Source: Clostridiales bacterium
GTDB taxonomy: Bacteria > Bacillota > Clostridia > Clostridiales > Clostridiaceae
Direction of reading: 5' to 3'
Length of the DNA: 32,000 bases
NCBI GenBank assembly: GCA_017889345.1
Contig: JAGHEJ010000072.1
Span: 11,805-43,804 of the forward strand
Positions 3,123-31,263 of this stretch are shown piece after piece (the stretch's first letter is position 1; every line of letters begins with the position of its first letter). The notes beneath the pieces are model-generated. The model ran no database searches and was not told the DNA's origin. It saw only the letters and a list, made by a program, of their open reading frames with translations. The translations under genes and the position numbers were made by a program.

Positions 3123-3677
3123 TTATTTTTTATTTTCTTGTTTATATTTCTTAGCGTCGTCAATTGCTTTACGTCCTTCTTCGCTGTCTAATCTTTTTCT
3201 TTGTTTTTTGTTAGATTCTTGGCTACTAGTTGTTACAGGAGTTTCTCCTCTCCAATACTCTGGAGGAACATATCCACCTTCTCCTAATTGTTCATCTTCT
3301 TCTATTTCTGTTTCTGAAATTGGCATTGGTTGTTGAAGTAATTCTACCAAATAGTCCTCTGTAATTTCTGTAACTAAAACTTGATCATCTTCAATATAAA
3401 CCATATAAAGTTGTCCAGTTGTTTCATCAAATAAAATTTGAGTACCTTGCTCTACAACTAAATTTATTAACTCTTCCTCAGAAGAAATATATTCAACAGG
3501 AACCATTATTTCTTGAAAATCAAATTCAACATCCCTAGTTTGTCCCTCTTGAGCTCTTGTTGATTTAGTTTCAGTTGCATGAGCCATAGCATTAATTCCA
3601 GCTAGTCCACCTAAGATTCCACCTAATAACAAAGCTCCCGTTATAATATTTTTACCAGTAATCTTTGATTTCTTCAT
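3123..3677 (-). CDS. Secreted or membrane-anchored acidic protein, unknown function
   Basis: The 184-aa product has a Sec-type leader, MKKSKITGKNIITGALLLGGILGGLAGINAMAHA, with an A-x-A site. The core is rich in E/D/T and the tail is basic (KKQRKRLDSEEGRKAIDDAKKYKQENKK). A good RBS (AAGAGGGGAG) precedes the ATG. Confidence 0.7.
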   Translation of the reverse strand: MKKSKITGKNIITGALLLGGILGGLAGINAMAHATETKSTRAQEGQTRDVEFDFQEIMVPVEYISSEEELINLVVEQGTQILFDETTGQLYMVYIEDDQVLVTEITEDYLVELLQQPMPISETEIEEDEQLGEGGYVPPEYWRGETPVTTSSQESNKKQRKRLDSEEGRKAIDDAKKYKQENKK

Positions 3678-5189: not shown

Positions 5190-5828
5190 TTACATGACAA
5201 ACTCCCTAATAATTTTATTAGGATTCGTTACATCTTCTCCTAAAATAAATGAATAAATCCCATCTTCAACTAATTTTTTACCCTGATCAAAACTTACAGA
5301 ATTTAAATTCCCAATAGTTGGAATATTTACATCATTACAAATTTCATTAATAAACTCTTCTTCAAAATATTCTCCATAAATATCTATAATAAGTGCATCC
5401 ATCCCAAATTTATAAGCATCTAAAGCTTGAAATTTTGTAAAAACTTTTCCAATTAATTGTCCAGAAAAATTTTTCCTAAGCTTTTTTATAATATTTTCCA
5501 AATCATCATAATCATCTTCTGAGTCACCAAACTCTATAACAATAAAATTTGGTTTTAAGTCAACTAATTCTATAAAATTTTCATAATTTTTAGGAATAAA
5601 AATCTTATTAAAATTTTCCTCAAGTCCTGCAAGTATTGGAAGGCTTGTACTTTCTTTTAAAATTTTTAAATTTCTAAGATTTTTTGAATAAAATCCACAA
5701 GCCCCCCCTTTTTCAGAAAAATTTATAATATATTTCACAAAAATTGGATCGCTTAAATGCTCATTTGTATAATTATCTATGTCAACAATAACTCCCCGCT
5801 TCACTTTAGGTAAATAATTATTTGTCAT
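5190..5828 (-). CDS. TIM-barrel protein resembling N-acetylmannosamine-6-phosphate 2-epimerase (NanE-like, divergent)
   Basis: The 212-aa product can be aligned by eye with NanE: KRGVIVD..., FSEKGGACGF, LKESTSLPILAG, FGMDALIID, VNIPTIGNLN, DGIYSFILGEDVTNPNKIIREF. The Lys-containing IIKR segment of NanE is not conserved. It has a strong RBS (AGGAGGAA) and starts 13 nt after the solute-binding gene. Confidence 0.45.
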   Translation of the reverse strand: MTNNYLPKVKRGVIVDIDNYTNEHLSDPIFVKYIINFSEKGGACGFYSKNLRNLKILKESTSLPILAGLEENFNKIFIPKNYENFIELVDLKPNFIVIEFGDSEDDYDDLENIIKKLRKNFSGQLIGKVFTKFQALDAYKFGMDALIIDIYGEYFEEEFINEICNDVNIPTIGNLNSVSFDQGKKLVEDGIYSFILGEDVTNPNKIIREFVM

Positions 5829-5841
5829 TATGTAATTCCTC

Positions 5842-7105
5842 CTAACTTTGATTATTTAAATTCTCAATTTCTAATTGTGCATTTTGCAAATATGATTTTA
5901 CATCAACACAATCTAAATATATCATTCGTGAATATTTTTCAATAATTCCAGAGATTTGATCATAATTTTCCATATTAAAAACAAAATCTCTACTATCTAC
6001 CAAACTCCTAAATGCAATTGTTTGAGCTTCTTCAACTTTTAAATTATCATCAACAAAAATGTCAGAATCTATAAAACTTTTATTTGTTGGAAGCAAATTA
6101 AAATTATTAGCAAACTCAATTTGATTATCTTCATTAAGAACAAAACTCATAAACTCTATAGCTTCTTCAATATTCTCATTATCATTTATTATAGATAAAT
6201 TCATAGTTTCTGAGTAATGCAAATTATTTTTTCCAAGAGGTAATGGATAAATAATTGTATTTTCATAAACCTCTCTTGAAATTTTCTCAATATTGCTTAT
6301 AAATTGAAAACTAGATTTTATCATAGCAACTTCTTTATTTGCATACCAAATAAATTTTATCTCCAAAATTAAAAAAATCTTTTGGAACTACATTCTCATT
6401 AAACAACATTTGATTAGTTTTAAAATAATTTTCTATCTCCTCTTTGTCAATTTTAATTTTACTATCCTCTCCAAAAATATTTAAACCATTAAATATTAAA
6501 CTTTCAATATTATCTGGTTCAAGTACACTCCCAAATTTTCCTGAATTTCTTTGTATAACTTTGAGAGAGTTTATAAACTCTTCTTCATTTTTCGGATAAT
6601 TTTCTTCAAATATTCCAGCATTGTCCATTATCTCTTTATTAATAAACAAAACTTTAATATCTGTGTACCAAGGAAATCCTAACTGTTTTACATCTTTTTG
6701 AGTTGAAGAAAGAAGACCTTCAAAAAATTCGTAAGAAAACTCCTCTTCATAATCTTTAAGATTAACTAAAAGCTCTGAGTTAATTTTATTAATTAGAGTT
6801 TTCGTATCCAAAGTTATAACATCAGGTAAAGTTCCATTTTTCCATGAATCATATAATTTAATAACAATTTCGTTATGAGGAAAATCATTCCAAACTATTT
6901 TAATATTTCGATGATCATTTTCAAATTTTTCGATTACATATCGGATATATTTTTCAAATCTTGTTTTCATATCCATAGTCCAAAAATCTATTACAACCTC
7001 TTCTTTTTCCCAAAAAGTTTTCAAATTTTTAGATGAAGAACAACTTATTAACATAAAATTTAAAAAAATAATAATAAAGATTATATTTAAAATTTTAAAC
7101 CCCAT
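5842..7105 (-). pseudogene. ABC-transporter family-1 solute-binding lipoprotein, split by a frameshift (track ORFs 6335-7141 and 5842-6366)
   Basis: The N-terminal ORF carries a lipoprotein leader with a lipobox (FLNFMLISCSSS) and an SBP-like body. The C-terminal ORF continues the SBP fold (YANKEVAMIKSS...). The two frames overlap at 6335-6366, next to a T7 run in coding sense (A7 at 6371-6377). Deleting one T joins them into one frame of about 420 codons. The likely start is ATG 7103-7105, with a GGAG RBS. Confidence 0.7.
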
Positions 7106-7180
7106 TGATACTCCAAAATAACTCCTATTTTTATAAATCATAGCACAATTACATATCTTACGAAAGTTTTCTATAAACCA

Positions 7181-11805: not shown

Positions 11806-11844
11806 TACAAAAATTAGCCACAAACCTTAAAGGTTAGTGGCTAA
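11806..11844 (-). terminator. Rho-independent terminator of the giant-protein operon
   Basis: The hairpin is ttagccac-a-aacct / aggtt-a-gtggctaa (11814-11844). On the minus strand TTTTTGTAATTTGT follows. It lies 15 nt after the stop at 11859. Confidence 0.55.
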
Positions 11845-11858
11845 AATCAATTAGTATT

Positions 11859-12262
11859 CTACCATAAAATTCCCATTTCTTCACATAAATTTTTAAATTC
11901 TTGCTCATAAAGCATTCGAGTTACAATTGCTTTTTGAGCTTCATAACTATCTCCATTTGCTTGCGGTAAATAAACCGTATTGTATTCATTAATCCAGAAT
12001 TCTAAGCCTTCTTGATCAGCTTCCCTATTAACTACAATTTGATATAAAACTTTTATAAGCTCTTCATCTGGTAAATTCCTATCAGAAAATTCTCTCTCTG
12101 CAAACATCAAATTATACAACACATACTTACCTGTAATATCTTTTTTCTCCATAAGTTTTTCAAGCCAATAACTATAACCATTTTCATCTGGATATCTTTC
12201 AAAAGCAAATATATAAATATTGGTTACAAATTCTTCTAAAAGGGTTTCTGGTTCTATTAAAA
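11859..12262 (-). repeat. Conserved C-terminal domain, copy 1 (paralogous to 17943-18340)
   Basis: EPETLLEEFVTNIYIFAFERYPDENGYSYW...DEELIKVLYQIVVNRE...CEEMGILW aligns end to end with the C-terminus of the other giant protein. The nucleotide similarity is visible, for example caatttgatataaaacttttat here against caatttgatacaaaacttttat in the other copy. Confidence 0.8.
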
Positions 12263-15200
12263 CATCATTAACCATCAATACAACATTCTCACCATCAATC
12301 GTATCTGCATTTATAACAATTGAATCATATTCTTTTCCCGGTACAAGATTAGTAACCATAAAGTATTCTCCACCTTCTACCTCTTCCACATTCAATCCAT
12401 CTGGCGTAACTTTAATTGACCTACTATAATCTATATCTATACCTTCATTACTTATAATTATTCCCCTATTAGTCGCTTTCTCTTTAACAGAAAGTTTTAT
12501 CGCATCACCAATTTCTCCAGTTGTAAACTCTATTTCAAATGGATCATAATTATTTTCTTGTGTAATCAGTAAAAACTTCAATTTATAATCACCTTGAGGT
12601 ATATCCTCTAAAATAATTTCAGTTACCTCTTCAAGATTACCGTCTTTACCATGAACATACCTAAATATAGGATCTTTATCATAAGATGAAGCATAAGCAT
12701 CTTTTAAATAAATATCCAATCTATCATCATTTTCTAATACTAAATTACTTGGATACTCCCAACTAATTAAAACACCTTCATCTGTATCCTCAACATATAA
12801 TCCTATTGTTCCAAATTTAATTTCTGCAAATGCCTCATAATCCTCTATTAAATACGACAATAAAATATCAAAACTATCCATATCAGAATCTACAGAAAAA
12901 GATGTAGTTCTAATTTCTGATAAATTCGAAATATGTTCTACTGCTGGTTTTGAAAAATCATATTCTGCTTCATCAGGTCCTTTAATAAATACTGCAAGAT
13001 TATCATAATTATCTATAAATTCTAATCCTTCTTTATCTAATCTCCAACCAATTGCAATATTATTACCTGAAACACCTTTAACATTTAAATCTTGAATCTC
13101 AAATCCAGTAGTTCTAAATGAAACAGAATTAGATGGAATTTGGACCTCAAGTAAATTTAACTCTAATTTTACGTCGTACTCCGTATCTGGAACTAATGCT
13201 GATAATTCAATAAGATTTATATTTGATAAGTCCAACTCATCACTTTGAATAAGTTCAAGATCTGGTGTTTCTAAAAAATCTTCCTCATCTTTATACTTAA
13301 TAAATATTTTTACACTTTCTCCATCTATTAAAGTATAATTCGATGGGTATTTCCATTCTATCTGAGCTGTCATTGGATTAAATTCCTTAACTGCAACATT
13401 AATGTCATCAACTTTACTAGTAAAATCAATCACCTTTTCAAAATTAACTCCACCTATTGTAACAACTACTTTTAAATCATACTCTGTATTAAGTTCATCA
13501 AAATAGGCAGATACAGATTGTTCCTCATTAAGCGCACTTGATAACGACTCACCATTCGGTTCTTTAGGATAATTTTCCTCTGTTTTCTTTTTAATATAAA
13601 CCTTACAAGCGTCATCATTGCTATATATAATATTCTCAGAATCTAATCTTATTCCTACCTTAACTACATGATCCATAACCTCAAGTACTTTTGCTTCTTG
13701 GATACCACTAATCTCATTAGTTTTAAATGTTATTTCTTTTTCTATTTTATGTGAATTACCACCATCTGGCCATAATACTACCTTAGCTTTATACTCTCCT
13801 CCTGGCGCTAATCCAAATATGTCTAATAATGTTATCTCATTTAAATCTACTTGACCTTCTTCATCCCCATGTATAGCGGAAAAATTGGGATTAGCATTAT
13901 AATTTTCTGATTTATATGGTTTTATATATATATCAAGAATATCTCCCTTAACTTTTTCATATCCTTCTGGATAAATAATTTCAAGTTTTACACCCATTAC
14001 ATTTGTATCTACTACACTAGCATTGAACTTAACAAGCTCGGGCTTTCCTACTACATCTCGATAAACAGGATTCCCACTATTATTATTAAATGTGTATTTT
14101 ACTCTAAATACATACTCTTTATTTACATCAAGGTTAGTAACTGTATATGTTGTTATATCTTTTATATCTCCTACCTTTTCAAATACTGCTTTTACGTCGT
14201 TAAAATCTCCATTATTCCCATTAGATTTCTCTTTAACAAAAATTTCTAACTTATCCGAACTACCTAATTCTACACCATTATTATAATTGTTCCATTTTAA
14301 ATTAACAGAAGAAGAGTTTATTGCCATACTTTCAAGACTTAATATTTGAAGACCACTTTTACAAACAAAAGTATATTCTTTATGAATTAAATCGGCCTTT
14401 TCAGGTTTAAAGTCTAAAGATAATATATAATCTTTATTCGTTGTTAAATTTGTAAATTCATGCTCAACAAAACTCTCTAATTCTCCTTTTCCACTTTTAG
14501 TAACTGTTATAGCATCACCACTTCCATCTTTAGGTTTTACCGATACATCTAATCTATCACCGTTATATATGCTATACCCTTCAGGATAAGACCATTTAAC
14601 TTTAATAGAATTATCTGTTATTGATTCCATTATAAAATCCATCTTACCTAAATCCATAGAAAAACTTACATATCCAGGCTCTTCAATAAGTCCCATAACA
14701 TATACTACCTTTACATCATAAGACTTATTATAGCTCCAAACATAAAGTTCTACTTCAGATAAATGTTCTAACTCATCTTTCAAGTGGTGTACAGATACTC
14801 TTGGTGCTGCAGAATATTCTGAAGCCTGTTTATCTTTAAGATATACTTCTACTTTATCTCCATATCTATACTTATAACTTTTATCCGATAAATCCCATTT
14901 AACTTTAACCTTTAATCCTCCAAGCTTCTCTACTCGAAAATTTTGTAATCCAAGCTTCTTTGTTTTAAATGGTATTTCTATAACTTGTTTTACATCTTCT
15001 TTTACTCCAGCTACTTCCCTTTCTCCTACTTTAAACTCTATTTTAGCTATATAATCCGTATTTGATTGAAGATTTGAGAATACATAGGAAGTATTACTAA
15101 GAAAACCATTGTATTTATTATCAAGATAAAAAACCTCTTTATATTCCATATCATTTGATTTTTTATAATAAACTTTTAATCTATGTTGATTCGTAACTAC

Positions 15201-17918
15201 TAAATTTTCTGGATATTTCCAAGACAATTTACTTGAACATGCTACTATTTCACTTATTTCTGCTTCCAATTTAGGAGACTCAACTCTAAAATCAATTATA
15301 TTACTTGAATATTTGGCTCCTCCTATGTTGTAAACTATCTTAACACTATAAGTATCAGAATAATTTGGAACCTCTATAGTCGCTTTTTTTATTCTATTTA
15401 TATCTTCCCTTATTGTATAAACCGGTGCTGTTGGAAAAACATCATGTGTTTTTAATTTAAGAAATATATCTACTCTATCATTATTTGAAAACTCAACATC
15501 TGCTTGATTTATATCCCAACTCAAATTAATTGTCTTACTTCCTATAATACCATCTTCAGATAATCCATCAATTTTTTCATCCATTATTTTAAAATCACCG
15601 GTTACAAATTCAGTTTCACTTATAAATTTCGTTCCCTGACTAGTTATAAGTTCTAACTTAGCTCTATAGTTTAAATTCGGACTCAATTCTTTAATCGTAT
15701 AAGTTCTAACTTGATCAAAATCTATACCTTGAAATCCATGCATTATTTTTGCATCAGGAACAGCTGGATATTCAAATCCATCTTTTTTAAAATAAATATT
15801 TAAAGTATCATTTTCCATTATTAGATAATTATTAGGATACTTCCATTCTAATTTAACAGATGTACCAGATGCAGATTGAACATTTAATCTTAATGGCGTA
15901 TACTCAAATGTGGTTTTATATGTTTCATACCCATTTGAAAATTCTGCAATATATCTATTTCCATTAACCAAAGCTTCTGTTAATTTAACCTTATTAGTTC
16001 CACCCTTTATATTAGTAAATACATTTTTAGTTTCATTACCATTCATATGAAGTATTTTAATTTTATTTTGAGATGTATTTGAACTCATAATAGAATTTAA
16101 TTTTTCATCTAATGTAATTTCAAGTCCATCACTGCCATCAACAAGCGTTCCAACTATAACTGGATTAAATAATATTGAAGAATCTGAGGATTTAAAATAT
16201 ATCAAACTACTTATATTGTTATAAGTTACAATATACTTACCGCCAAATATTAATGATACATCATTAAATTTAAATTCTTTTGATCCATTTGCTGTAGCTA
16301 CATATTCCTTTCCGTTATCATCTATAATTGACATTTTTTCTCCAGTAATTACATCTTGATTTTCTATGAAAAGCGAAAAATCATATCCGTTACTCGAATT
16401 AGAAGGTGTCAAATTTTTTATAGTTACATCTAAAGACTTAAATTCAATTAAATCTGCATAAAAAGCAAAAGAAATATACGCATAAGACCAATCTTTACGA
16501 GTATTACTTGATTCTACTTTAAAATTATAACTGTTAAATCCTTGTTTCATATCTTTATATGGAATTTTAAAATTAGCACCTCTAACATCATGTTTTTTCC
16601 ATAAAAATTCAGATTTATTATTTATAACATCAAACCTGAATTCCCCACCTATCTGGTTCCTCAATGTATTATCATATAACGTAACATAGTGAGCTTTCGG
16701 AAATCCATCCCATGAATGAGGACATGCATGTTGATATTCATTATTAAAAGGTTGGATTTCATCAATTTTATATCCAGTATCATCCATCGATGTAAATATT
16801 TCTAATCCTTCCCATACATTAGGATTTATTTCTGAATCTCTGAATGATATTTGAAATAATTGTTCATATAATATTCGCCCAGTTTTCTTATCCGATACAA
16901 TACATTTAATATCACTTGGTTCCAAAGTTCCCAAATATTCATCAGGAACCCTAAATGCCAAAGACTCTGTTATTACTCCTGTTGATTCAACTGGCTTTAA
17001 TCCTTTTTTAGAATTACTAAGTATAAGTTTTAAAACCGTAGTTTCTCTCATATCTCTATGAATATGTATCTGATGTGGCACAAAACTAAGCATTTTGCTT
17101 TCTTTTGCATAAAAAAACTCAATTTCATTAGGTACAGCTGTTGTAATAATTTCACGATTAGATTTTAAAACTGTTGAAACTATCCTATCAAAATTATTAT
17201 TATCAGCATAAAGTCTAATTATATAGTCCTTATTCACTCTAAATAAAGATGATAAATAAGGTAGCGTTATTTTATAATTATCTTTAATTAATTTATCTTT
17301 ATCAATTGTAATTGTATCCATATCTATCTTAGTTAAATCTGCATTTAAAATATCTAACTTAAGCTTATTTGCATCATCAATTATTTTTTTACAATTTTTA
17401 AAATCTATAATAATATCTTGAACACAACAACTCTGACTTGAAGGATTTATTACCAATTTACTAATTTCAATTTTAGGATTGAAAATCTCATTTTTATCTG
17501 TAAACTTAAAAGAATTTATAAACTTTAAAGTTTTTTCTAAATCTGAATCATAAACTTCTAATTCAACATCATAAATATTATCATGTTCAAAAGAATCTAC
17601 TGAAAGCCACTTAATACCTAAATTATCTAACATTTGTTCTGGCTTATCATTTTTTCTTTTATTGGGATCAGCATTTTTAACACTAAATGATTCGACGGTC
17701 ATTGTGTATGTAATTCTATCACTCAAATCAAAAGATATCCCTCCCATCTCAGCTTTTATAATATATCCAGGAGCAATAGAATCAAGTTGAGTTGAGAAGG
17801 CCTTAGCCTCCTCAATTTTATTAAATAAGTTATTTGTATTATTAGAAAATGGAATAAGCTCTATTAAAAATATACAAACTAATATGTTAACTAAAATTCT
17901 CCTAAAAATCCTTTTCAT
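11859..17918 (-). CDS. Giant secreted repeat protein (2019 aa): unique N-terminal region of about 670 aa, 11 alternating A/B FN3/Ig-like modules, and a C-terminal DUF4214-like domain
   Basis: The long uninterrupted ORF has a GGAGGGGA RBS and sits 24 nt after the upstream paralog. Its N-terminal leader is MKRIFRRILVNILVCIFLIELIPF. The A-module motif W-x-YP recurs with Trp codons at 15845, 15221, 14594, 13355 and 12761. The C-terminus EEFVTNIYIFAFERYPDENGYSYW...LIKVLYQIVVNREADQEGLEFW fits the two-half DUF4214 pattern. Confidence 0.9.
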   Translation of the reverse strand: MKRIFRRILVNILVCIFLIELIPFSNNTNNLFNKIEEAKAFSTQLDSIAPGYIIKAEMGGISFDLSDRITYTMTVESFSVKNADPNKRKNDKPEQMLDNLGIKWLSVDSFEHDNIYDVELEVYDSDLEKTLKFINSFKFTDKNEIFNPKIEISKLVINPSSQSCCVQDIIIDFKNCKKIIDDANKLKLDILNADLTKIDMDTITIDKDKLIKDNYKITLPYLSSLFRVNKDYIIRLYADNNNFDRIVSTVLKSNREIITTAVPNEIEFFYAKESKMLSFVPHQIHIHRDMRETTVLKLILSNSKKGLKPVESTGVITESLAFRVPDEYLGTLEPSDIKCIVSDKKTGRILYEQLFQISFRDSEINPNVWEGLEIFTSMDDTGYKIDEIQPFNNEYQHACPHSWDGFPKAHYVTLYDNTLRNQIGGEFRFDVINNKSEFLWKKHDVRGANFKIPYKDMKQGFNSYNFKVESSNTRKDWSYAYISFAFYADLIEFKSLDVTIKNLTPSNSSNGYDFSLFIENQDVITGEKMSIIDDNGKEYVATANGSKEFKFNDVSLIFGGKYIVTYNNISSLIYFKSSDSSILFNPVIVGTLVDGSDGLEITLDEKLNSIMSSNTSQNKIKILHMNGNETKNVFTNIKGGTNKVKLTEALVNGNRYIAEFSNGYETYKTTFEYTPLRLNVQSASGTSVKLEWKYPNNYLIMENDTLNIYFKKDGFEYPAVPDAKIMHGFQGIDFDQVRTYTIKELSPNLNYRAKLELITSQGTKFISETEFVTGDFKIMDEKIDGLSEDGIIGSKTINLSWDINQADVEFSNNDRVDIFLKLKTHDVFPTAPVYTIREDINRIKKATIEVPNYSDTYSVKIVYNIGGAKYSSNIIDFRVESPKLEAEISEIVACSSKLSWKYPENLVVTNQHRLKVYYKKSNDMEYKEVFYLDNKYNGFLSNTSYVFSNLQSNTDYIAKIEFKVGEREVAGVKEDVKQVIEIPFKTKKLGLQNFRVEKLGGLKVKVKWDLSDKSYKYRYGDKVEVYLKDKQASEYSAAPRVSVHHLKDELEHLSEVELYVWSYNKSYDVKVVYVMGLIEEPGYVSFSMDLGKMDFIMESITDNSIKVKWSYPEGYSIYNGDRLDVSVKPKDGSGDAITVTKSGKGELESFVEHEFTNLTTNKDYILSLDFKPEKADLIHKEYTFVCKSGLQILSLESMAINSSSVNLKWNNYNNGVELGSSDKLEIFVKEKSNGNNGDFNDVKAVFEKVGDIKDITTYTVTNLDVNKEYVFRVKYTFNNNSGNPVYRDVVGKPELVKFNASVVDTNVMGVKLEIIYPEGYEKVKGDILDIYIKPYKSENYNANPNFSAIHGDEEGQVDLNEITLLDIFGLAPGGEYKAKVVLWPDGGNSHKIEKEITFKTNEISGIQEAKVLEVMDHVVKVGIRLDSENIIYSNDDACKVYIKKKTEENYPKEPNGESLSSALNEEQSVSAYFDELNTEYDLKVVVTIGGVNFEKVIDFTSKVDDINVAVKEFNPMTAQIEWKYPSNYTLIDGESVKIFIKYKDEEDFLETPDLELIQSDELDLSNINLIELSALVPDTEYDVKLELNLLEVQIPSNSVSFRTTGFEIQDLNVKGVSGNNIAIGWRLDKEGLEFIDNYDNLAVFIKGPDEAEYDFSKPAVEHISNLSEIRTTSFSVDSDMDSFDILLSYLIEDYEAFAEIKFGTIGLYVEDTDEGVLISWEYPSNLVLENDDRLDIYLKDAYASSYDKDPIFRYVHGKDGNLEEVTEIILEDIPQGDYKLKFLLITQENNYDPFEIEFTTGEIGDAIKLSVKEKATNRGIIISNEGIDIDYSRSIKVTPDGLNVEEVEGGEYFMVTNLVPGKEYDSIVINADTIDGENVVLMVNDVLIEPETLLEEFVTNIYIFAFERYPDENGYSYWLEKLMEKKDITGKYVLYNLMFAEREFSDRNLPDEELIKVLYQIVVNREADQEGLEFWINEYNTVYLPQANGDSYEAQKAIVTRMLYEQEFKNLCEEMGILW
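12550..15890 (-). repeat. In-frame array of alternating A/B modules, each about 100 aa (period about 594-627 nt per A+B pair), in the 2019-aa protein
   Basis: A modules include VKLEWKYPNNY, KLSWKYPENL, VKWSYPEGY, LEIIYPEGY, IEWKYPSNY and ISWEYPSNL. B modules include INLSWDINQADVEF, VKVKWDLSDKSYKY, VNLKWNNYNNGVEL, VKVGIRLDSENIIY and IAIGWRLDKEGLEF. The repeats are diverged at DNA level. Confidence 0.8.
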
Positions 17919-17942
17919 TTTCCCCTCCTAAATATTTGTTCA

Positions 17943-18340
17943 TTACCAATTTATCCCCATTTGTTCACACAATCTTCCGAATTCTGGTTCATATACCATT
18001 CTTAAAACTACTGTCTTTTTAGCTTCATATTTATCCCCATTAAATTTTTGAAGATATTGATTATATATAGCTATCCAATAACTTAATCCCTGAGCATCGT
18101 ACTCTCTATTTACAACAATTTGATACAAAACTTTTATTAAGTCTTCATCACTTAAATTTCTATTTGCAAATTCTTTTTCTGCAAACATTAAATTTATCAA
18201 AAAATATTTACCAGACATATTTTCATTTTCTTCAAGCTCTTGTTTCCAATAATTATAACCACCTTCATCTGGTTCTCTATCAAAAGCAAAAAAATACGAG
18301 TTTCTTAAAAATTCCTCTAACAATGTACTTGGCTCTAATG
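17943..18340 (-). repeat. Conserved C-terminal domain, copy 2 (paralogous to 11859-12262)
   Basis: The sequence is EPSTLLEEFLRNSYFFAFDREPDEGGYNYW...DEDLIKVLYQIVVNRE...CEQMGINW. It shares an identical 13-aa block, LIKVLYQIVVNRE, with copy 1. Confidence 0.8.
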
Positions 18341-21300
18341 TAAACTCTCCTATAGACAATCTAACTTCATTTCCATCTACATCTTGTGTAACCAATAAAA
18401 CATTTTCATAATGCTTACCTGGTACAATTTTATCTATAACAATTACTTCTGTACCATCATCTAAGCTATCATAGTAAGATTCTCCACCTATACTATTTGC
18501 AACTTCTGATGTTGTATCCAAATTATATTCTTCTGGTAACGCTATATCTATCCAATTCCCAACTAACTCGCTAACAATTTCTACCTCTAAAGCTTCCCCT
18601 TCTGGTACGCTATATATAATTCCTAACGGAAATACTTTCATTTGTTTACCTTTAATTATTACACCTACCTTTGAAAAATAAGATATGTTCTTCAAAGGTA
18701 TATTTGTTAAAGAAGATAAGTCTTGTTTCTTTGAAAATTCTTTTTTATAATCAGATTCTCCTTGATTACATACAAGCACCTCTAACTCATCATTTTTTTC
18801 AAAAGATATTTCTGGTGGATATGTTAAAAGTAAGCTAATACTTCCATCTCCATTGTCCTCAAATCCTAAATTTATAACTCCTGCCGACATTTCCTTAGAA
18901 ATACTTTTATCTCCAATTACATAATCAACCTTAATATCGTACACTAAAGTAACGTCCTCAACTAAAAAGCGTGCACTATTTATCTGGTTTAAGTTATCTG
19001 TGAATGTATATAATAAATTATCTTCACTCCATGATTCTTCTGAATTTTTCATATAAACTTTTATTGAAGAATTTTCCTCAATAAAATCCACATCATTTGA
19101 GCTTAATTTCCATTCCATATCAAATTCAAAAGGTTTAATCGTTGAAAACTTCAATTCTGAAATTGATAAGTCTTCTGTCTTTAACTCTATCTCCTTCAAT
19201 TTCTTACCAACATCATATAAATCCAAAACAATTTTTACATTATATGAAGTATTTGGCATAAGCTCAGTTATTAAAACACTCTTAAAATCCTGTAAATATA
19301 ATCCTTCCTCCTCATCATGCTCCATAAAATACATTGGCTCTTCACTATAATCATTTTCAGTACTCTCTTTTACAAAAATCGAAATAGTTTCACCAGTTGT
19401 TATTAAATAATTTTGAGGATAATTCCATTTAATGAGACCAGATGTTGGATATGTTTTAACTACCTCTGCATTTATATCATCAACAGTTGTACTCATCTTC
19501 AATTCTTTCTCAAATTTTTTATCTCCAAGTTCAAATACAACTTTAACATCATAATTTGTATCAATTTTATCTACAAATACAAAAGCATCTTGTTGAAGAT
19601 AAATTTCTTCAATTGTTTCATTTGCCTCTTCTGGATATTTTCCATTTTCTTCCTTATAAAAAATTTTCATAACGTCATTTGGATTAAACATAAAGTTTTC
19701 TCCATTCTTCCATCTAATAATTCCTGTAATATCACTTAAATGCTCTATTGTCATATCTTTAATATCTATTAACGGTGTTGTTAAATCTACTTCTTTTTGA
19801 ATTGGATTACTTTTATAAGACTTTGCTGTAAACTTTGCTGTAAATTTATATTTAGTTTCATAGTCAAGACCTACAAGCTCAATTACTCCCATTTCATTAA
19901 TTTTTAATCCATCTTTTCCTTGCTCAAATGTTGCTATTAAATCTTCAGTAGAATTTTCTTCTCTCGAACTCTTTGATGAATTAGAATCTTCAGCTGATGG
20001 TTTTTCTGCATCTCCAACTTTTTTTAAGAAAACTTCTATTTTATCTCCATCCTTCAAGGTATAATAACTCTCAAAACCAAAATCCAAATTTATTTTGTTT
20101 TGAACAACGTCCACCAACTCAAAAGAAAACACATCAAATTTATTGTCATATATATCTTCTTTTGTAGCTGTAATTTTTGTATCTTGTGAACTTCCTGAAC
20201 GAACATTTTCATCATCAACTCCCGACGTACTACTATCTGCACTTACTGATGTTTTATTTGATTTAAAAATTTGTTTCTTAGAAAATACGTTTACTTGACG
20301 TAATTTTGTTTTATATGTTGATGCTGCTGGTGGTGAAGAAGGAGTTTGAGATGCTGCTGCTCCACCTCCTCCTGATTGTTGTTTAGTTTCTTCATATTTA
20401 AATGTAATTTTATATTTTTCAAATTTATCTAAAGCTAAATCTTTCTTCTCATAATTATCTAAATTTGTAACTGTATCTCCAGATGCTCCATCTGTATTTG
20501 AAGATGCAGTTTTTGATTTATCTATAATAACTTCTTTGCTTTTAGATTTTTTTGTTATAGATTTCTGTGAAATATTTCTAGAGTCTTGTTTTTCCTCACT
20601 AGTTACCTCAAAATTTATCGGTGTTCCCTTAGGATCATAATCATAAGGAGCATACTCAGCTCTTGCTTCAACTTGTTTTTCAGTTTTTTTGTTATAAGAT
20701 GTTCTAACAATTTGTGGATTTTCAGAATTATTAATATCAACTATATAAAGTGTTTCTTGAATTACTGAATTATCTTTTGTAACTCTAACTTTAAAATCAT
20801 AGTTATCTTTTTGAGGATCCTGAGATTGTTGTTGTTCTGTTATAGTTGCTGGTGAATTAATACTACTTATTGAAACTTCAATAATGCTTCCATTATTTAA
20901 TTCTGTTCCATTTTGAATTTTCTCAACCTTATTATTTTCAGGATAACTTTCCTCTGCACTTTTCTTCCAAAAAATCTCAACTTTATCTCCATTATTAAGA
21001 TTTAAATTTTCTGGCAATTCTAATTTGAATTGAACTTTTTTACTCGAAGTTCTTGGGGAATTATCATCTCTTGTTTGTACTCCTGCAGTAGAATCTTCAA
21101 CCTTAACTCCAAAAGTAATTTCAGGTAACTGGATTTTATGACTTATATATTTAAAAATCTCTTTACCTCCGATAGACATATAAAATTTAATGTTATATTT
21201 TGTGTTGTACTTTGGTAAAGTTAATTTTGCATTTTTTGTCTCTGCTAAATTTTTACTTTCATCTGATTTTTGGGTAATAGTAAAAGATTCTGAATAATTT

Positions 21301-22514
21301 TCTGTCCCTACCTCTTTTATAGAAATTTTTATGAAATCATTTTCATAAAAAGAAATACTCTCTCCTTCATAATCCCAACTAATAGTAATTTCATTATCTT
21401 TATTGTTTGAAGCTTCTCCTTCTTTTGCAGGCTCTCCAACTTTTAAATCTTTAACTTTAAAATCTTTTGTTTCAAATTTATACTCATTCTCTTTCTTTAT
21501 TGGAATGGTTTTCCCCAACTCATCAATTACATCAACAATAAATTGAACTTTAATGTTGTATGTTGTTTTAAATTTCAAATTAGTAGCTAAATATTCTTTT
21601 GTTTTTAATAATTCTTCCTTACCTTTTGCTTTTATAATTGGATCTTTTAAAAAATCAACGAGCTTTTCTTCTTTCAAAAATATATGTAATTCACTATTAT
21701 CATTCAAAATTTCTTCATCTAAAAAAGACCATACAAACTTTGCAGAATTCATTTGAACTTCTTCAACTTTAAAGTCAACACCTTTTGCTAGAGATTCTAA
21801 CCAAAAAACTTCACTCTCTATTTTATTTCCACCTAATAAATAACAAATTTTAAAATCATATATATCTTCAAAATTTGGAAGAGATAATTCAGCTGTAGTT
21901 ACTTTATCTTTTGTTTCATAGGAAGGAGTTTTTGGAAAACTATCGTCGCTTATTTTCTTCATATATATTTGAATTTTATCTCCATCTTGAAATTCAATAT
22001 CTGGATCACTTACTTCCCAATCTATTGATACAGTTTTCTTATAGAGTATATCCTCTTCAATATCTTTGATTTGTATATCTTTTATCTCAAATTTATTTGT
22101 TGTAAAACTTGTTTCACTCGTATAGATATCTCCATTTAATGTGACTAACTCAAATTTTGCTGTATAATCAATTCCTGGCTGCAATGATTTTGCTTCAAAA
22201 CTTGTAATTGAACTTAAATCAACATCATCTTGTTTATGAGCTACAGAATATATTGGAGTTGATCCGTTTTCTCCAATCTCTGAGTCAAAAACAATTAAAT
22301 TTATATAATCCCCAATAGAAAAACTCATTTCTTCTGGATAAGTCCAAGAAAATTTTGCATAACGAGTTGTAGCATTCTCAACATTTAAACTTACTTCACC
22401 ACTACTTTTTGTGCTTTTACTTTTACCAAATACACTTACATCAACCGATATACAATTCATAAGAAAAATGCTCAAAACAATTAGACTCACAGTTCTTAAA
22501 AATTTTCTAACCAT
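17943..22514 (-). CDS. Giant secreted repeat protein (1523 aa): two blocks of A/B FN3/Ig-like modules split by a low-complexity linker, plus a C-terminal DUF4214-like domain
   Basis: The long ORF has an AGGAAAGGAAGG RBS and the leader MVRKFLRTVSLIVLSIFLMNCISV. A-module Trp codons lie at 22346, 21731 and 19427. B modules include VSIDWEVSDPDIEF and DMEWKLSSNDVDF. The central S/T/K/Q-rich segment contains QQSGGGGAAASQTPSSPPAAS. Confidence 0.9.
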   Translation of the reverse strand: MVRKFLRTVSLIVLSIFLMNCISVDVSVFGKSKSTKSSGEVSLNVENATTRYAKFSWTYPEEMSFSIGDYINLIVFDSEIGENGSTPIYSVAHKQDDVDLSSITSFEAKSLQPGIDYTAKFELVTLNGDIYTSETSFTTNKFEIKDIQIKDIEEDILYKKTVSIDWEVSDPDIEFQDGDKIQIYMKKISDDSFPKTPSYETKDKVTTAELSLPNFEDIYDFKICYLLGGNKIESEVFWLESLAKGVDFKVEEVQMNSAKFVWSFLDEEILNDNSELHIFLKEEKLVDFLKDPIIKAKGKEELLKTKEYLATNLKFKTTYNIKVQFIVDVIDELGKTIPIKKENEYKFETKDFKVKDLKVGEPAKEGEASNNKDNEITISWDYEGESISFYENDFIKISIKEVGTENYSESFTITQKSDESKNLAETKNAKLTLPKYNTKYNIKFYMSIGGKEIFKYISHKIQLPEITFGVKVEDSTAGVQTRDDNSPRTSSKKVQFKLELPENLNLNNGDKVEIFWKKSAEESYPENNKVEKIQNGTELNNGSIIEVSISSINSPATITEQQQSQDPQKDNYDFKVRVTKDNSVIQETLYIVDINNSENPQIVRTSYNKKTEKQVEARAEYAPYDYDPKGTPINFEVTSEEKQDSRNISQKSITKKSKSKEVIIDKSKTASSNTDGASGDTVTNLDNYEKKDLALDKFEKYKITFKYEETKQQSGGGGAAASQTPSSPPAASTYKTKLRQVNVFSKKQIFKSNKTSVSADSSTSGVDDENVRSGSSQDTKITATKEDIYDNKFDVFSFELVDVVQNKINLDFGFESYYTLKDGDKIEVFLKKVGDAEKPSAEDSNSSKSSREENSTEDLIATFEQGKDGLKINEMGVIELVGLDYETKYKFTAKFTAKSYKSNPIQKEVDLTTPLIDIKDMTIEHLSDITGIIRWKNGENFMFNPNDVMKIFYKEENGKYPEEANETIEEIYLQQDAFVFVDKIDTNYDVKVVFELGDKKFEKELKMSTTVDDINAEVVKTYPTSGLIKWNYPQNYLITTGETISIFVKESTENDYSEEPMYFMEHDEEEGLYLQDFKSVLITELMPNTSYNVKIVLDLYDVGKKLKEIELKTEDLSISELKFSTIKPFEFDMEWKLSSNDVDFIEENSSIKVYMKNSEESWSEDNLLYTFTDNLNQINSARFLVEDVTLVYDIKVDYVIGDKSISKEMSAGVINLGFEDNGDGSISLLLTYPPEISFEKNDELEVLVCNQGESDYKKEFSKKQDLSSLTNIPLKNISYFSKVGVIIKGKQMKVFPLGIIYSVPEGEALEVEIVSELVGNWIDIALPEEYNLDTTSEVANSIGGESYYDSLDDGTEVIVIDKIVPGKHYENVLLVTQDVDGNEVRLSIGEFTLEPSTLLEEFLRNSYFFAFDREPDEGGYNYWKQELEENENMSGKYFLINLMFAEKEFANRNLSDEDLIKVLYQIVVNREYDAQGLSYWIAIYNQYLQKFNGDKYEAKKTVVLRMVYEPEFGRLCEQMGINW

Positions 22515-22590
22515 TCTTACCTTCCTTTCCTCTAAATTTTCTACAACAATCTTTTTAAAATAATTGTTAAATCTATAATGTTTCCTGAAA

Positions 22591-22619
22591 TTTTTACTAT
22601 TTTCGTGAAATAATGTAAA
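22591..22619 (-). promoter_or_regulatory. Weak candidate sigma-A promoter for the giant-protein operon
   Basis: On the minus strand the pattern is TTTACA (22614-22619), a 17-nt spacer, then TAAAAA(T) (22591-22596), about 75 nt upstream of ATG 22514. Such matches are common in AT-rich DNA. Confidence 0.3.
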
Positions 22620-22647: not shown

Positions 22648-23034
22648 ATGAAATTAAAATTTTTTGTATTAGGTACAGTAGTAATTACTCTTAGTCTAGT
22701 TTTAATGTCTTGTTCAAATTCACCAAAACAATCTCGAACAATCATAGGCGAACTTTCTCCAAGCTCTCCTATCTCTGCAGATTTTTCAAAATTCTCTGGA
22801 GTTGAATCTTATAAATTTACAACTTCTACTGAATCAATTTTAAATTACGAAATTAAACTTAGAACAGGTAAAACTTCAATTTCTATAGTTGATGAAAATG
22901 GCAACGAATATTTAAATGCCACTGCTCCTATTAAAGACGTCATTACATTAAATCCTTCAGGAGAAACAACATACTATATTGACTTAACTTACGATAACGG
23001 AGTTGGTTCATATTCATTTTCTATCGACAAATAA
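22648..23034 (+). CDS. Small lipoprotein with a PPC-like (pre-peptidase C-terminal type) beta-sandwich pattern
   Basis: The 128-aa product has the leader MKLKFFVLGTVVITLSLVLMSCSNS, with a lipobox L-M-S-C, and an AAGGAG RBS. The C-terminal pattern is ESYKFTTSTESILNYEIKL...ISIVDENGNEYLNA...GETTYYIDLTYDNGVGSYSFSI. It resembles PPC domains (Y-F ... l-l-D-nG ... G-Y-i-v ... Y-l-i). Confidence 0.7.
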   Translation: MKLKFFVLGTVVITLSLVLMSCSNSPKQSRTIIGELSPSSPISADFSKFSGVESYKFTTSTESILNYEIKLRTGKTSISIVDENGNEYLNATAPIKDVITLNPSGETTYYIDLTYDNGVGSYSFSIDK

Positions 23035-30456: not shown

Positions 30457-31263
30457 TTAAAACTCAAAACCTAATGCTTTAATTTCTTCACCTTCTTCTG
30501 GTGTTATTTGTCCTTGTGCTACAGAATAATCAACTAAAGCATCATAAGCTTTCTTTCTATCTTCATCTGTTTTAGCTGTTAAATATGCTTTTTCAAGATT
30601 TGCTTGTTCTTGTGAGATTAATCCTTCTTTAACCATTCCATCTAAAGATTGTAAATACAATTCTACTTCAACTTCATAAGCTCCATCATATCCTGCTGCT
30701 TTTAATTTATCTCCATCCTCTTTTGAATAAGCTCCCATCTTAACTTCATAGTCAATTATATCTTCGTAAGCTTTTTGTTTATCTTGATGTGTTTCTGCTG
30801 TTAGAAATGCAATTTGAAGATCAGCTTCCTCTTTTGCTATGAGTCCTTCTTTAACCATTTCATCGAATGCTCCATTAACATATATCTTTTGTACTACTTC
30901 CCAAGGAGCATCATAACCAGCTTCTTTTAATTTATTTCCAGTTTCTTCTGTTATATCTCCTATTTTAACTTGGTAATCTATTAGTTCATCATAAGCGTTT
31001 TGTTTTTCTTCATGTGTTTGTGCACTATAAAATGCTATTTCAAGATCTCCCTCTTCTTTGCTCATAACTCCATTTTCTACAAGTGCTTTTATTAAATCTA
31101 TAGTATTTTCTTCATAAGTTACATCTTCCTCTTGAAAATCTCTTGTAACTTCAACTGTGCTATCATCTATCGCTTTAACAGCTTGTCCTCCTACTCCAAC
31201 TCCTACAACAACCATAAGACCTAAAGTAATACCAGCAACTAATTTTTTAATTTTCTCTCCCAT
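30457..31263 (-). CDS. Secreted acidic protein with three tandem repeats of about 75 aa
   Basis: The 268-aa product has the leader MGEKIKKLVAGITLGLMVVVGVGVGGQAVKA, with an A-x-A-type site, and an AAGGAG RBS. The repeats are anchored at LVENGVMSKEEGDLEIAF (res 61), MVKEGLIAKEEADLQIAF (res 136) and MVKEGLISQEQANLEKAY (res 210). Confidence 0.75.
   Translation of the reverse strand: MGEKIKKLVAGITLGLMVVVGVGVGGQAVKAIDDSTVEVTRDFQEEDVTYEENTIDLIKALVENGVMSKEEGDLEIAFYSAQTHEEKQNAYDELIDYQVKIGDITEETGNKLKEAGYDAPWEVVQKIYVNGAFDEMVKEGLIAKEEADLQIAFLTAETHQDKQKAYEDIIDYEVKMGAYSKEDGDKLKAAGYDGAYEVEVELYLQSLDGMVKEGLISQEQANLEKAYLTAKTDEDRKKAYDALVDYSVAQGQITPEEGEEIKALGFEF
30460..31101 (-). repeat. Three in-frame tandem repeats, period 74-75 aa (about 225 nt)
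   Basis: Each unit reads roughly MVKEGLI-x-EEADL-x-IAFLTA-x-TH-x-x-KQKAY-x-x-IDY-x-VK-x-G-x-I/S-x-E-x-G-x-KLKAAGYD. The units are helical and amphipathic in character. Confidence 0.75.

Follow-up and report, generated by a model that had tools for sequence, protein, structure and literature searches.

A conserved operon of segmented filamentous bacteria encodes two collinear FN3-array paralogs that are candidate wall-held surface fibrils

What do two giant proteins encoded side by side in a stretch of clostridial DNA build, and what would keep them on the cell? We examined a window of 32,000 nucleotides (nt) from assembly GCA_017889345.1 (contig JAGHEJ010000072.1, positions 11,805 to 43,804; all positions below count from the first letter of the window). 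Its minus strand carries a two-gene operon, in which gene 1 encodes p1 (1523 amino acids, aa) and gene 2 encodes p2 (2019 aa). The window can be assigned to a lineage of segmented filamentous bacteria (SFB; Candidatus Arthromitus/Savagella) whose p1 and p2 share about 49% identity with those of rodent SFB. SFB are the textbook example of a commensal that elicits Th17 cells and IgA in the intestine, an effect that requires attachment to the epithelium; they are difficult to grow in culture and do not have the wall-anchor domains usual in clostridia. We consider it probable that p1 and p2 are Sec-exported rods or fibrils, held non-covalently on the wall with their N-termini pointing outward.

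The origin of the window was assessed from homologs, gene order and base composition. A search of 5.8 billion clusters returned only 18 full-length homologs of p2 (2012-2069 aa) and 36 of p1 (1402-1525 aa), and an exhaustive search of 1.84 billion representatives added one p1-type representative of 1549 aa. One full-length homolog is annotated 'DUF4214 domain-containing protein [Candidatus Arthromitus sp. SFB-rat-Yit]'. When species-representative genomes were scanned, relatives were found only in an uncultured Arthromitus metagenome-assembled genome (MAG) and in Candidatus Dwaynia gallinarum. The rat SFB chromosome (AP012210.1) carries the pair at about 492.9-503.4 kb, as proteins of 1438 and 2029 aa, in the same gene order as the window, with HisK, MurG, TPR and small open reading frames (ORFs) upstream and ZapA, rubrerythrin, cation efflux (CDF), MatE and transglycosylase genes downstream. 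At least nine SFB lineages, and rat SFB, have orthologs of the pair in syntenic position, and p2 orthologs showed 41-55% identity between clades. The p2 gene of the window is carried by a metagenome contig of 147 kb. G+C content was 26-28% throughout. The assignment to SFB was made because homologs were limited to SFB, gene order was shared with rat SFB and G+C content lay in this range.

The gene structure bore out the original prediction. The two head-to-tail minus-strand ORFs that it described were both intact, with exact coordinates, and the GGAGG ribosome-binding site (RBS) that it placed in the 24-nt gap between them was read as AGGAGGGG; rat SFB and two further lineages keep the GGAGG site in an intergenic gap of 23-25 nt. 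A terminator had been expected solely after the second gene. The hairpin found there (dG -17.4 kcal/mol, z = -4.73) is followed directly by UUUUU, none of 200 shuffled sequences folded equally well, and no terminator-like site was seen within the p1-p2 pair. Upstream of gene 1, a 19-nt block was identical between the window and rat SFB, whereas the encoded proteins are only about 49% identical; this block is probably a core promoter or operator. A second, partly conserved block (AAAATAG.AAAAATTTCA, 22586-22603), also a probable promoter or operator, was observed further upstream. Together the blocks could report stage-specific regulation. A scan for promoter hexamers gave fewer matches than in shuffled sequence and allowed no confident assignment, and an Rfam scan of the whole window found no RNA family.

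Most of p1 and the greater part of p2 consist of modules of about 100 aa, which had been described as two strictly alternating kinds, A and B. Hidden Markov models (HMMs) iterated from one A seed and from one B seed converged on the same 21 modules, 10 in p1 and 11 in p2; this makes A and B two subtypes within a single FN3-like family. The modules and their alternation both held up: with classes assigned by position, identity was 20.0% within class and 17.0% between classes (permutation p = 0.0002). The alternation was not strict, as 5 of the 21 modules were ambiguous in class. The Trp codons used earlier to mark the modules (15845, 15221, 14594, 13355, 12761, 22346 and 21731) were all correct. 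The accompanying claim that modules dominate both proteins needs qualifying for p2, in which the first 630 mature residues make up a separate head of about six beta-sandwiches.

Profile and structural comparisons agreed on the fold. The Pfam family PF00041 (fn3) matched p2 at 77.6 bits (cut-off 25; E 8.4e-22); p1 alone reached 18.6 bits, below the cut-off, and its modules join those of p2 in the internal HMM. An AlphaFold2 model of p2 aa 1500-2019, built from 14-15 orthologous sequences (mean predicted local distance difference test score, pLDDT, 82.9; predicted template modelling score, pTM, 0.48), contained three FN3-like sandwiches, a fourth sandwich (here called X) and an eight-helix bundle over a tandem of DUF4214 domains. 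With this model the top Foldseek matches in the PDB were four-domain FN3 fragments of fibronectin (E ~1e-13). A, B and X were thus all predicted to be beta-sandwiches, in line with the Ig/FN3-like fold on which the original prediction had staked its reading.

Identity between modules was 10-33% and no DNA-level tandem repeats were found; the array is therefore old and diverged. Among p2 orthologs, 17 of 18 had 11 modules and one had 12. Recent repeat expansion was rejected as an explanation, given the fixed module number and the lack of DNA tandem repeats. Alternation of the two subtypes probably keeps neighbouring domains dissimilar, limits misfolding and sets a two-module structural period. 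An FN3 domain is about 3.5 nm long, so that 10-12 modules would span roughly 35-42 nm.

BLASTP segments joined p1 and p2 in register: residues 33-514 of p1 aligned with 668-1125 of p2, and the C-terminal halves aligned through to the end. Identity was 26% over the modules and 63% over DUF4214. The p1 hinge did not match the module HMM, and its composition is disorder-prone. By this alignment p1 and p2 are collinear paralogs, p1 being essentially a headless p2 in which a hinge of about 220 aa replaces module 6.

The shared C-terminus was the most conserved part of both proteins. As proposed from its motifs, it fits DUF4214: PF13946 matched in two stretches in each protein, at 51.6 bits in p1 and 48.6 bits in p2 (Pfam gathering cut-off 23.2), and the isolated p2 C-terminus scored 59 bits (E 5e-16). 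Across distant lineages, DUF4214 was 78% conserved in both proteins compared with 19-69% elsewhere. Conservation was lowest in p1 module 5 (19%), the p1 hinge (23%), p2 modules 3-6 (28-39%) and aa 251-400 of the p2 head (28%). The last strands of p2 X, beginning LVPGKEY, belong together with DUF4214 to a cassette common to other SFB surface proteins. An exhaustive HMMER search with an A-B-A-X-DUF4214 profile against the 1.84 billion representatives gave 6009 matches. Only about a dozen proteins (1364-2048 aa) covered the entire profile; the remaining matches were to DUF4214 alone or to the end of X plus DUF4214 (many at profile positions ~315-521), and they were usually C-terminal. When 50 proteins of the X+DUF4214 type were examined, all 50 contained DUF4214. 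Their passengers included fn3, Big_2, BspA-type leucine-rich repeats, a pectate-lyase-like adhesive domain and a C39-like peptidase. Three of the 50 also matched the phycobilisome-linker family PF00427, and a relation of DUF4214 to phycobilisome-linker domains has been noted with reference to PDB 2KY4 (PMC3371716). A search with DUF4214 alone returned 4 short matches only, and a sequence search of the domain against the PDB returned nothing.

One of these cassette proteins is of immunological note. The 1050-aa protein P0171 contains LVFDVQFSGAVPNKT, the published SFBNYU_003340 Th17-antigen epitope, verbatim, and BLASTP aligned it with p2 from LVPGKEY to the terminal Trp (162 aa, 34% identity, E 2e-26). 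The alignment indicates that the dominant SFB Th17 antigen carries the same C-terminal cassette as p1 and p2. The idea that p2 is itself the Th17 antigen was rejected: no p2 ortholog contains the epitope strings, and the epitope lies in a different protein of 1050 aa, which has just the cassette in common with p2. SFBNYU_003240, another DUF4214 protein, is the source of a CD8 T-cell epitope. Two peptides taken from a proteomics table for human SFB (NFETGTLGDLIK and EMMDQPEFK) were likewise sought and do not occur in the p1/p2 family.

More distant proteins with an FN3 array, X and DUF4214 were also seen (L006, from Ca. Dwaynia gallinarum DWVN01000048.1; L010; and P0065-P0072). Their lengths range over 1364-1980 aa, with 24-29% identity to p2. 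The genomic surroundings of P0067 differ (PcrA, LigA, SBP_5), and the G+C content of its contig, 28%, is SFB-like. This bacterial group therefore has more than two paralogs of the family.

DUF4214 had been named as the only candidate anchor, and nothing found here competes with it. Neither protein has an LPXTG-like motif or a C-terminal hydrophobic segment (the termini are GINW and GILW), the N-terminal leader is the sole hydrophobic segment in each, and SLH, choline-binding and CWB2 domains gave no Pfam or NCBIfam match at E <= 0.1. Nor do p1 and p2 resemble RTX-DUF4214 substrates of type I secretion systems (T1SS), as no RTX/HemolysinCabind match was obtained and no T1SS was present in the neighbours scanned. 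The reported absence of sortase, T1SS and accessory-Sec genes from the window agreed with the neighbours named by synteny with rat SFB and with ten scanned unnamed flanking ORFs, all of which were housekeeping or unknown genes.

The architecture had been considered to match no characterised Gram-positive adhesin. This claim of novelty did not survive: orthologs of p1 and p2 are annotated, yet uncharacterised, in SFB genomes, the family was flagged in 2012 (PMC3371716), and the proposal that DUF4214 is an anchor is in print (PMC12780176). Pamp et al. reported 19 secreted proteins specific to SFB that end in a DUF4214-like region, and a further cluster sharing this C-terminus in which one protein contains an FN3 domain; they suggested that these proteins are components of surface structures (PMC3371716). 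Like that family, p1 and p2 have leaders, a DUF4214 C-terminus and homologs only in Arthromitus and related MAGs. A cryo-electron tomography (cryo-ET) study of 2025 noted that SFB are without the usual wall-binding domains and regarded DUF4214 as the likely surface-anchoring domain; it described the Th17 antigen as an abundant, probably wall-associated surface protein beneath a hair-like layer, and reported the same domain on SFB peptidoglycan hydrolases (PMC12780176). Outside Gram-positives, a preprint reports that Psh, an RTX-DUF4214 protein of Pseudomonas putida, binds the O-antigen of lipopolysaccharide and blocks 16 phages (10.64898/2026.09.02.748959). What is new here is the fixed architecture of 10-11 A/B modules, the collinear paralogy and the conserved operon, together with the predicted p2 head, the cassette shared with the Th17 antigen and the link to hair-like structures that are so far unexplained.

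The p2 head was likewise modelled with AlphaFold2 (aa 41-680; 14-15 orthologous sequences; pLDDT 87.5, pTM 0.79). It had no match by sequence in Pfam or NCBIfam, or in the PDB with a head profile, and Foldseek returned only generic Ig/FN3/MG arrays with template modelling (TM) scores below 0.2. Complement, CD109 and TEP were among the top matches, and a thioester domain was therefore considered and rejected: TM was below 0.2, and SCCVQD, the only C-x-Q-like string in p2, was unconserved in the orthologs inspected. Within the head, aa 401-600 was best conserved (58%; motifs IPHSWDGFPKAHYITLYD and QIGGEFRFDV), compared with only 28% for aa 251-400. The same region (16119-16718, minus strand) has invariant PHSW, HY.T, GGE.R, K.ESS, W and Y.D, and resembles a carbohydrate-binding surface with no assignable family.

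Sec-type leaders had been reported on both proteins; N-terminal leaders are present, their Sec character being judged by eye. Orthologs of p1 have ordinary short leaders with sites of the SNA|Q or VNA|H type. The p2 leader, at about 40 aa, is unusually long for a Sec signal peptide, with a spacer of about 20 residues between the hydrophobic core and the AxA. In all lineages compared it has a conserved acidic residue within the hydrophobic core (LIELIP, FLFELIP), and the [AS]-x-A that precedes the conserved mature N-terminus was kept in 13 of 13 lineages.

These features are consistent with an operon whose two collinear paralogs would be Sec-exported and remain cell-bound in the form of long, thin fibrils. 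Each protein would form a rod of 10-11 highly diverged FN3-like modules, a spacer of fixed length that ends in X and tandem DUF4214. The cassette may act as an SFB-wide, non-covalent surface-retention module that binds a conserved polymer of the cell's own envelope, most likely a wall-associated polysaccharide, and so may fill the role that SLH and CWB2 play in other Firmicutes. Binding to the cell's own envelope would account both for the cassette being the slowest part to evolve and for its occurrence with many unrelated passengers, among them an antigen localised to the surface by experiment. With N-termini outward, the p2 array would present its conserved six-domain head of 630 aa, in which the conserved patch may be a ligand-binding tip, while p1 would be headless with a flexible mid-rod hinge of 220 aa. 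The original prediction of a surface fibril or adhesin family is supported in its first part by the secreted, fibrillar look of the FN3-like sandwiches, and none of the findings that it had named as refuting it was obtained; 'adhesin' is only a possible role, and a structural coat is an equally possible one.

Several points weigh against wall-held fibrils. To our knowledge, direct wall binding by DUF4214 has never been demonstrated in any Gram-positive. The O-antigen binding of Psh was credited to the whole protein, DUF4214 being only 'likely stabilising' (10.64898/2026.09.02.748959). The C-terminal model constrains the relative placement of its domains only poorly (pTM 0.48), and the term rod draws on the short linkers and on FN3 precedent. 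The p2 leader is atypical in its length and acidic core residue, and its putative cleavage site is placed solely by the conserved AxA. In the head, neither sequence nor structure searches gave a recognisable ligand-binding, lectin or adhesin family.

Other arrangements of the same parts were weighed against this reading. If the N-terminal segment served as a signal anchor and escaped cleavage, it would tie the proteins to the membrane at that end, and DUF4214 would lie at the distal tip. The distance between the p2 hydrophobic core and the putative AxA site and the conserved Glu or Asp in that core would suit such a tether. The position of [AS]-x-A directly before the conserved mature N-terminus of p2 in every lineage inspected, the ordinary short leaders of p1 orthologs, and a cassette conserved over many different passengers, which fits an anchor better than a tip, make it very improbable. 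Release from the cell was also considered, with DUF4214 targeting host mucus or epithelial glycans or another microbe and the C-terminus as the business end. No DUF4214 ligand has been demonstrated in Gram-positives, the Psh work suggests general glycan binding, and SFB-associated proteins do reach host cells. A host-directed domain, however, should vary with host lineage, whereas DUF4214 is the most conserved part (78%) and it is the stalk and parts of the head that vary; moreover, the same cassette occurs on the Th17 antigen, which surrounds the bacterial surface, and the same domain on SFB peptidoglycan hydrolases (PMC12780176). We regard release as improbable. A protective shield over surface polysaccharide, masking phage receptors or immune targets as proposed for Psh, would mean that p1 and p2 are not adhesins at all. 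DUF4214 is held in common with the phage-blocking Psh, and the hair-like layer does hide the Th17 antigen from antibodies; DUF4214 is however all that is shared with Psh, as p1 and p2 have no RTX repeats and no T1SS, a rod of 1500-2000 aa would be a costly glycan mask, and SFB phages are little documented. We regard such a shield as very improbable.

A different possibility is that p1 and p2 are not adhesins but structural subunits of a regular SFB surface layer, perhaps as a p1/p2 hetero-complex. The layers in question are the filament-specific hair-like layer, the hair-like structures of the tip, or the surface layer (S-layer) of the intracellular offspring. Cryo-ET of SFB showed an S-layer, a hair-like layer with 5-nm spacing whose inner and outer parts are divided by a dense line, and tip hairs 28-34 nm long and about 1.3 nm wide; composition was left open, and the Th17 antigen was excluded as a constituent of the hair-like layer (PMC12780176). 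The calculated length of a 10-12-module rod, the bipartite form of p1 (5 modules, hinge, 5 modules), and a universally conserved, co-transcribed pair with strong RBSs and a fixed module count all suit a layer subunit. The match in dimensions is only rough: p2, head included, would reach about 60 nm when fully extended, exceeding the hairs, and an FN3 domain is about 2-2.5 nm wide compared with the 1.3 nm measured. Mouse SFB also encodes at least 19 other DUF4214 proteins that are equally eligible (PMC3371716). We consider a role as layer subunits rather unlikely. In its fullest form, which we would likewise give only a modest chance, the pair would build the hair-like layer and/or the 28-34 nm tip hairs, DUF4214 would be a new class of Gram-positive wall anchor, the layer's inner and outer halves would each be matched by one half of p1, and the p2 head would lie outermost, possibly in contact with the host.

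The p1/p2 pair is a plausible, if unproven, candidate for the SFB hair-like layer. The operon offers two concrete candidates, conserved in all sampled SFB lineages, for surface structures of open composition. The cassette shared with the Th17 antigen sharpens the idea of X+DUF4214 as a general SFB surface-retention module, which, if true, would be useful for displaying or mapping SFB antigens.

Table 1. Positions of the operon, its signals and the protein regions in the window
Feature	Position	Strand	Remarks
Gene 1 (p1)	17943..22514	minus	1523 aa; leader, 5 FN3-like modules, hinge, 5 FN3-like modules, X, tandem DUF4214
Gene 2 (p2)	11859..17918	minus	2019 aa; long leader, six-domain beta head, 11 FN3-like modules, X, tandem DUF4214
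Conserved 19-nt block (GATTTAACAATTATTTTAA)	22555..22573	minus	41-59 nt upstream of gene 1; identical in rat SFB (L001:5601)
Gene 1 RBS (GGAAAGGAAGG)	22520..22530	minus	sequence reading
Gene 2 RBS (AGGAGGGG)	17922..17929	minus	4-5 bases before p2 ATG; kept in L001, L007, L008
Operon intrinsic terminator	11809..11844	minus	hairpin 11814-11844, T-run 11809-11813
p1 leader (aa 1-30)	22425..22514	minus	basic n-region, hydrophobic core; putative VFG|K cleavage site
p1 modules 1-5 (aa 38-573)	20796..22403	minus	FN3-like; A, B, A', B, one ambiguous; internal HMM E 1e-17 to 1e-22
p1 central hinge (aa 574-792)	20139..20795	minus	Ser/Thr/Lys/Gln/Gly-rich, low complexity; position of p2 module 6
p1 modules 6-10 (aa 793-1305)	18600..20138	minus	FN3-like; internal HMM
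p1 X domain (aa 1306-1392)	18339..18599	minus	beta-sandwich just before DUF4214; aligns with modelled p2 X
p1 tandem DUF4214 (aa 1393-1523)	17946..18338	minus	PF13946 E 9.7e-14, 2 stretches; proposed wall-retention module
p2 leader (aa 1-40)	17799..17918	minus	putative cleavage after conserved [AS]-x-A, just before F/Y-x-TQLDSIAPGY
p2 head (aa 41-672)	15903..17798	minus	predicted all-beta, ~six sandwich domains; AlphaFold2
p2 module array (aa 673-1804)	12507..15902	minus	11 FN3-like modules, pattern A B A B A B' A B A B A
p2 X domain (aa 1805-1888)	12255..12506	minus	predicted beta-sandwich; AlphaFold2 strands at model residues 308-387
p2 tandem DUF4214 (aa 1889-2019)	11862..12254	minus	predicted eight-helix all-alpha; AlphaFold2 helices at model residues 394-516

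Further observations were made elsewhere in the window. Divergent from gene 1, an ORF at 22648..23034 (plus strand) encodes a 128-aa product resembling a lipoprotein (LSLVLMSC). A 184-aa acidic protein with a clear signal peptide and no Pfam match is encoded at 3123-3677 (minus strand). An extracellular solute-binding protein (SBP_bac_1/8) at 5842-7141 (minus strand) is split into two overlapping ORFs, the N-terminal part at 6335..7141 and the C-terminal part at 5842..6366, which suggests either a pseudogene with a frameshift or an error in sequencing; beside it is an ORF (5190..5828) with a weak likeness to NanE. Another possible small secreted SFB protein, of 268 aa, is encoded at 30457-31263 (minus strand); it has a leader, matches DUF2680 and contains three repeats of about 70 aa (KEEGDLEIAFYSAQTHEEKQNAYDELIDYQVK...). 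GC skew was strongly negative throughout the window (positions 1-32000; -0.13 to -0.44) and the majority of genes lie on the minus strand, as would be expected if that were the leading strand in this region.

Comparison with known systems places p1 and p2 closest to other SFB surface proteins. SFBNYU_003340 (P3340) and the proteins of Cluster.1 and Cluster.3 of Pamp et al. share with them the organism group, Sec leaders, beta-rich passengers and the C-terminal cassette. P3340, at 1050 aa, has no module matching the A/B HMM, and p1 and p2 differ from the other SFB DUF4214 proteins in their far larger size, ordered array of 10-11 modules and conserved two-gene operon. Psh likewise bears a helix-rich C-terminal DUF4214 on a secreted protein, and is retained on its producer through surface polysaccharide; unlike p1 and p2 it is Gram-negative, much smaller and exported by a T1SS, with an RTX passenger and no FN3 array.

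Eukaryotic FN3 arrays (fibronectin, titin, contactins), the source of the top Foldseek matches, share the module fold and head-to-tail order; identity is only 9-15%, the biology is unrelated and there is no alternation of A and B subtypes. As a device, the stalk recalls SasG/Aap of staphylococci, in which an elongated stalk of alternating G5 and E modules projects an N-terminal domain off the wall. The rod function is alike without homology: G5 and E are flat beta folds rather than FN3, the repeats of SasG/Aap are nearly identical whereas p1/p2 modules are 10-33% identical, and SasG/Aap is anchored covalently through LPXTG and sortase, whereas p1 and p2 have no LPXTG. For the anchor, the parallels are the SLH (Bacillus anthracis) and CWB2 (Clostridioides difficile) families, which include S-layer proteins and wall hydrolases. 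The fold differs, DUF4214 being all-alpha and related to phycobilisome linkers; the logic is the one proposed for p1 and p2, with one conserved non-covalent anchor carried by otherwise unrelated surface proteins.

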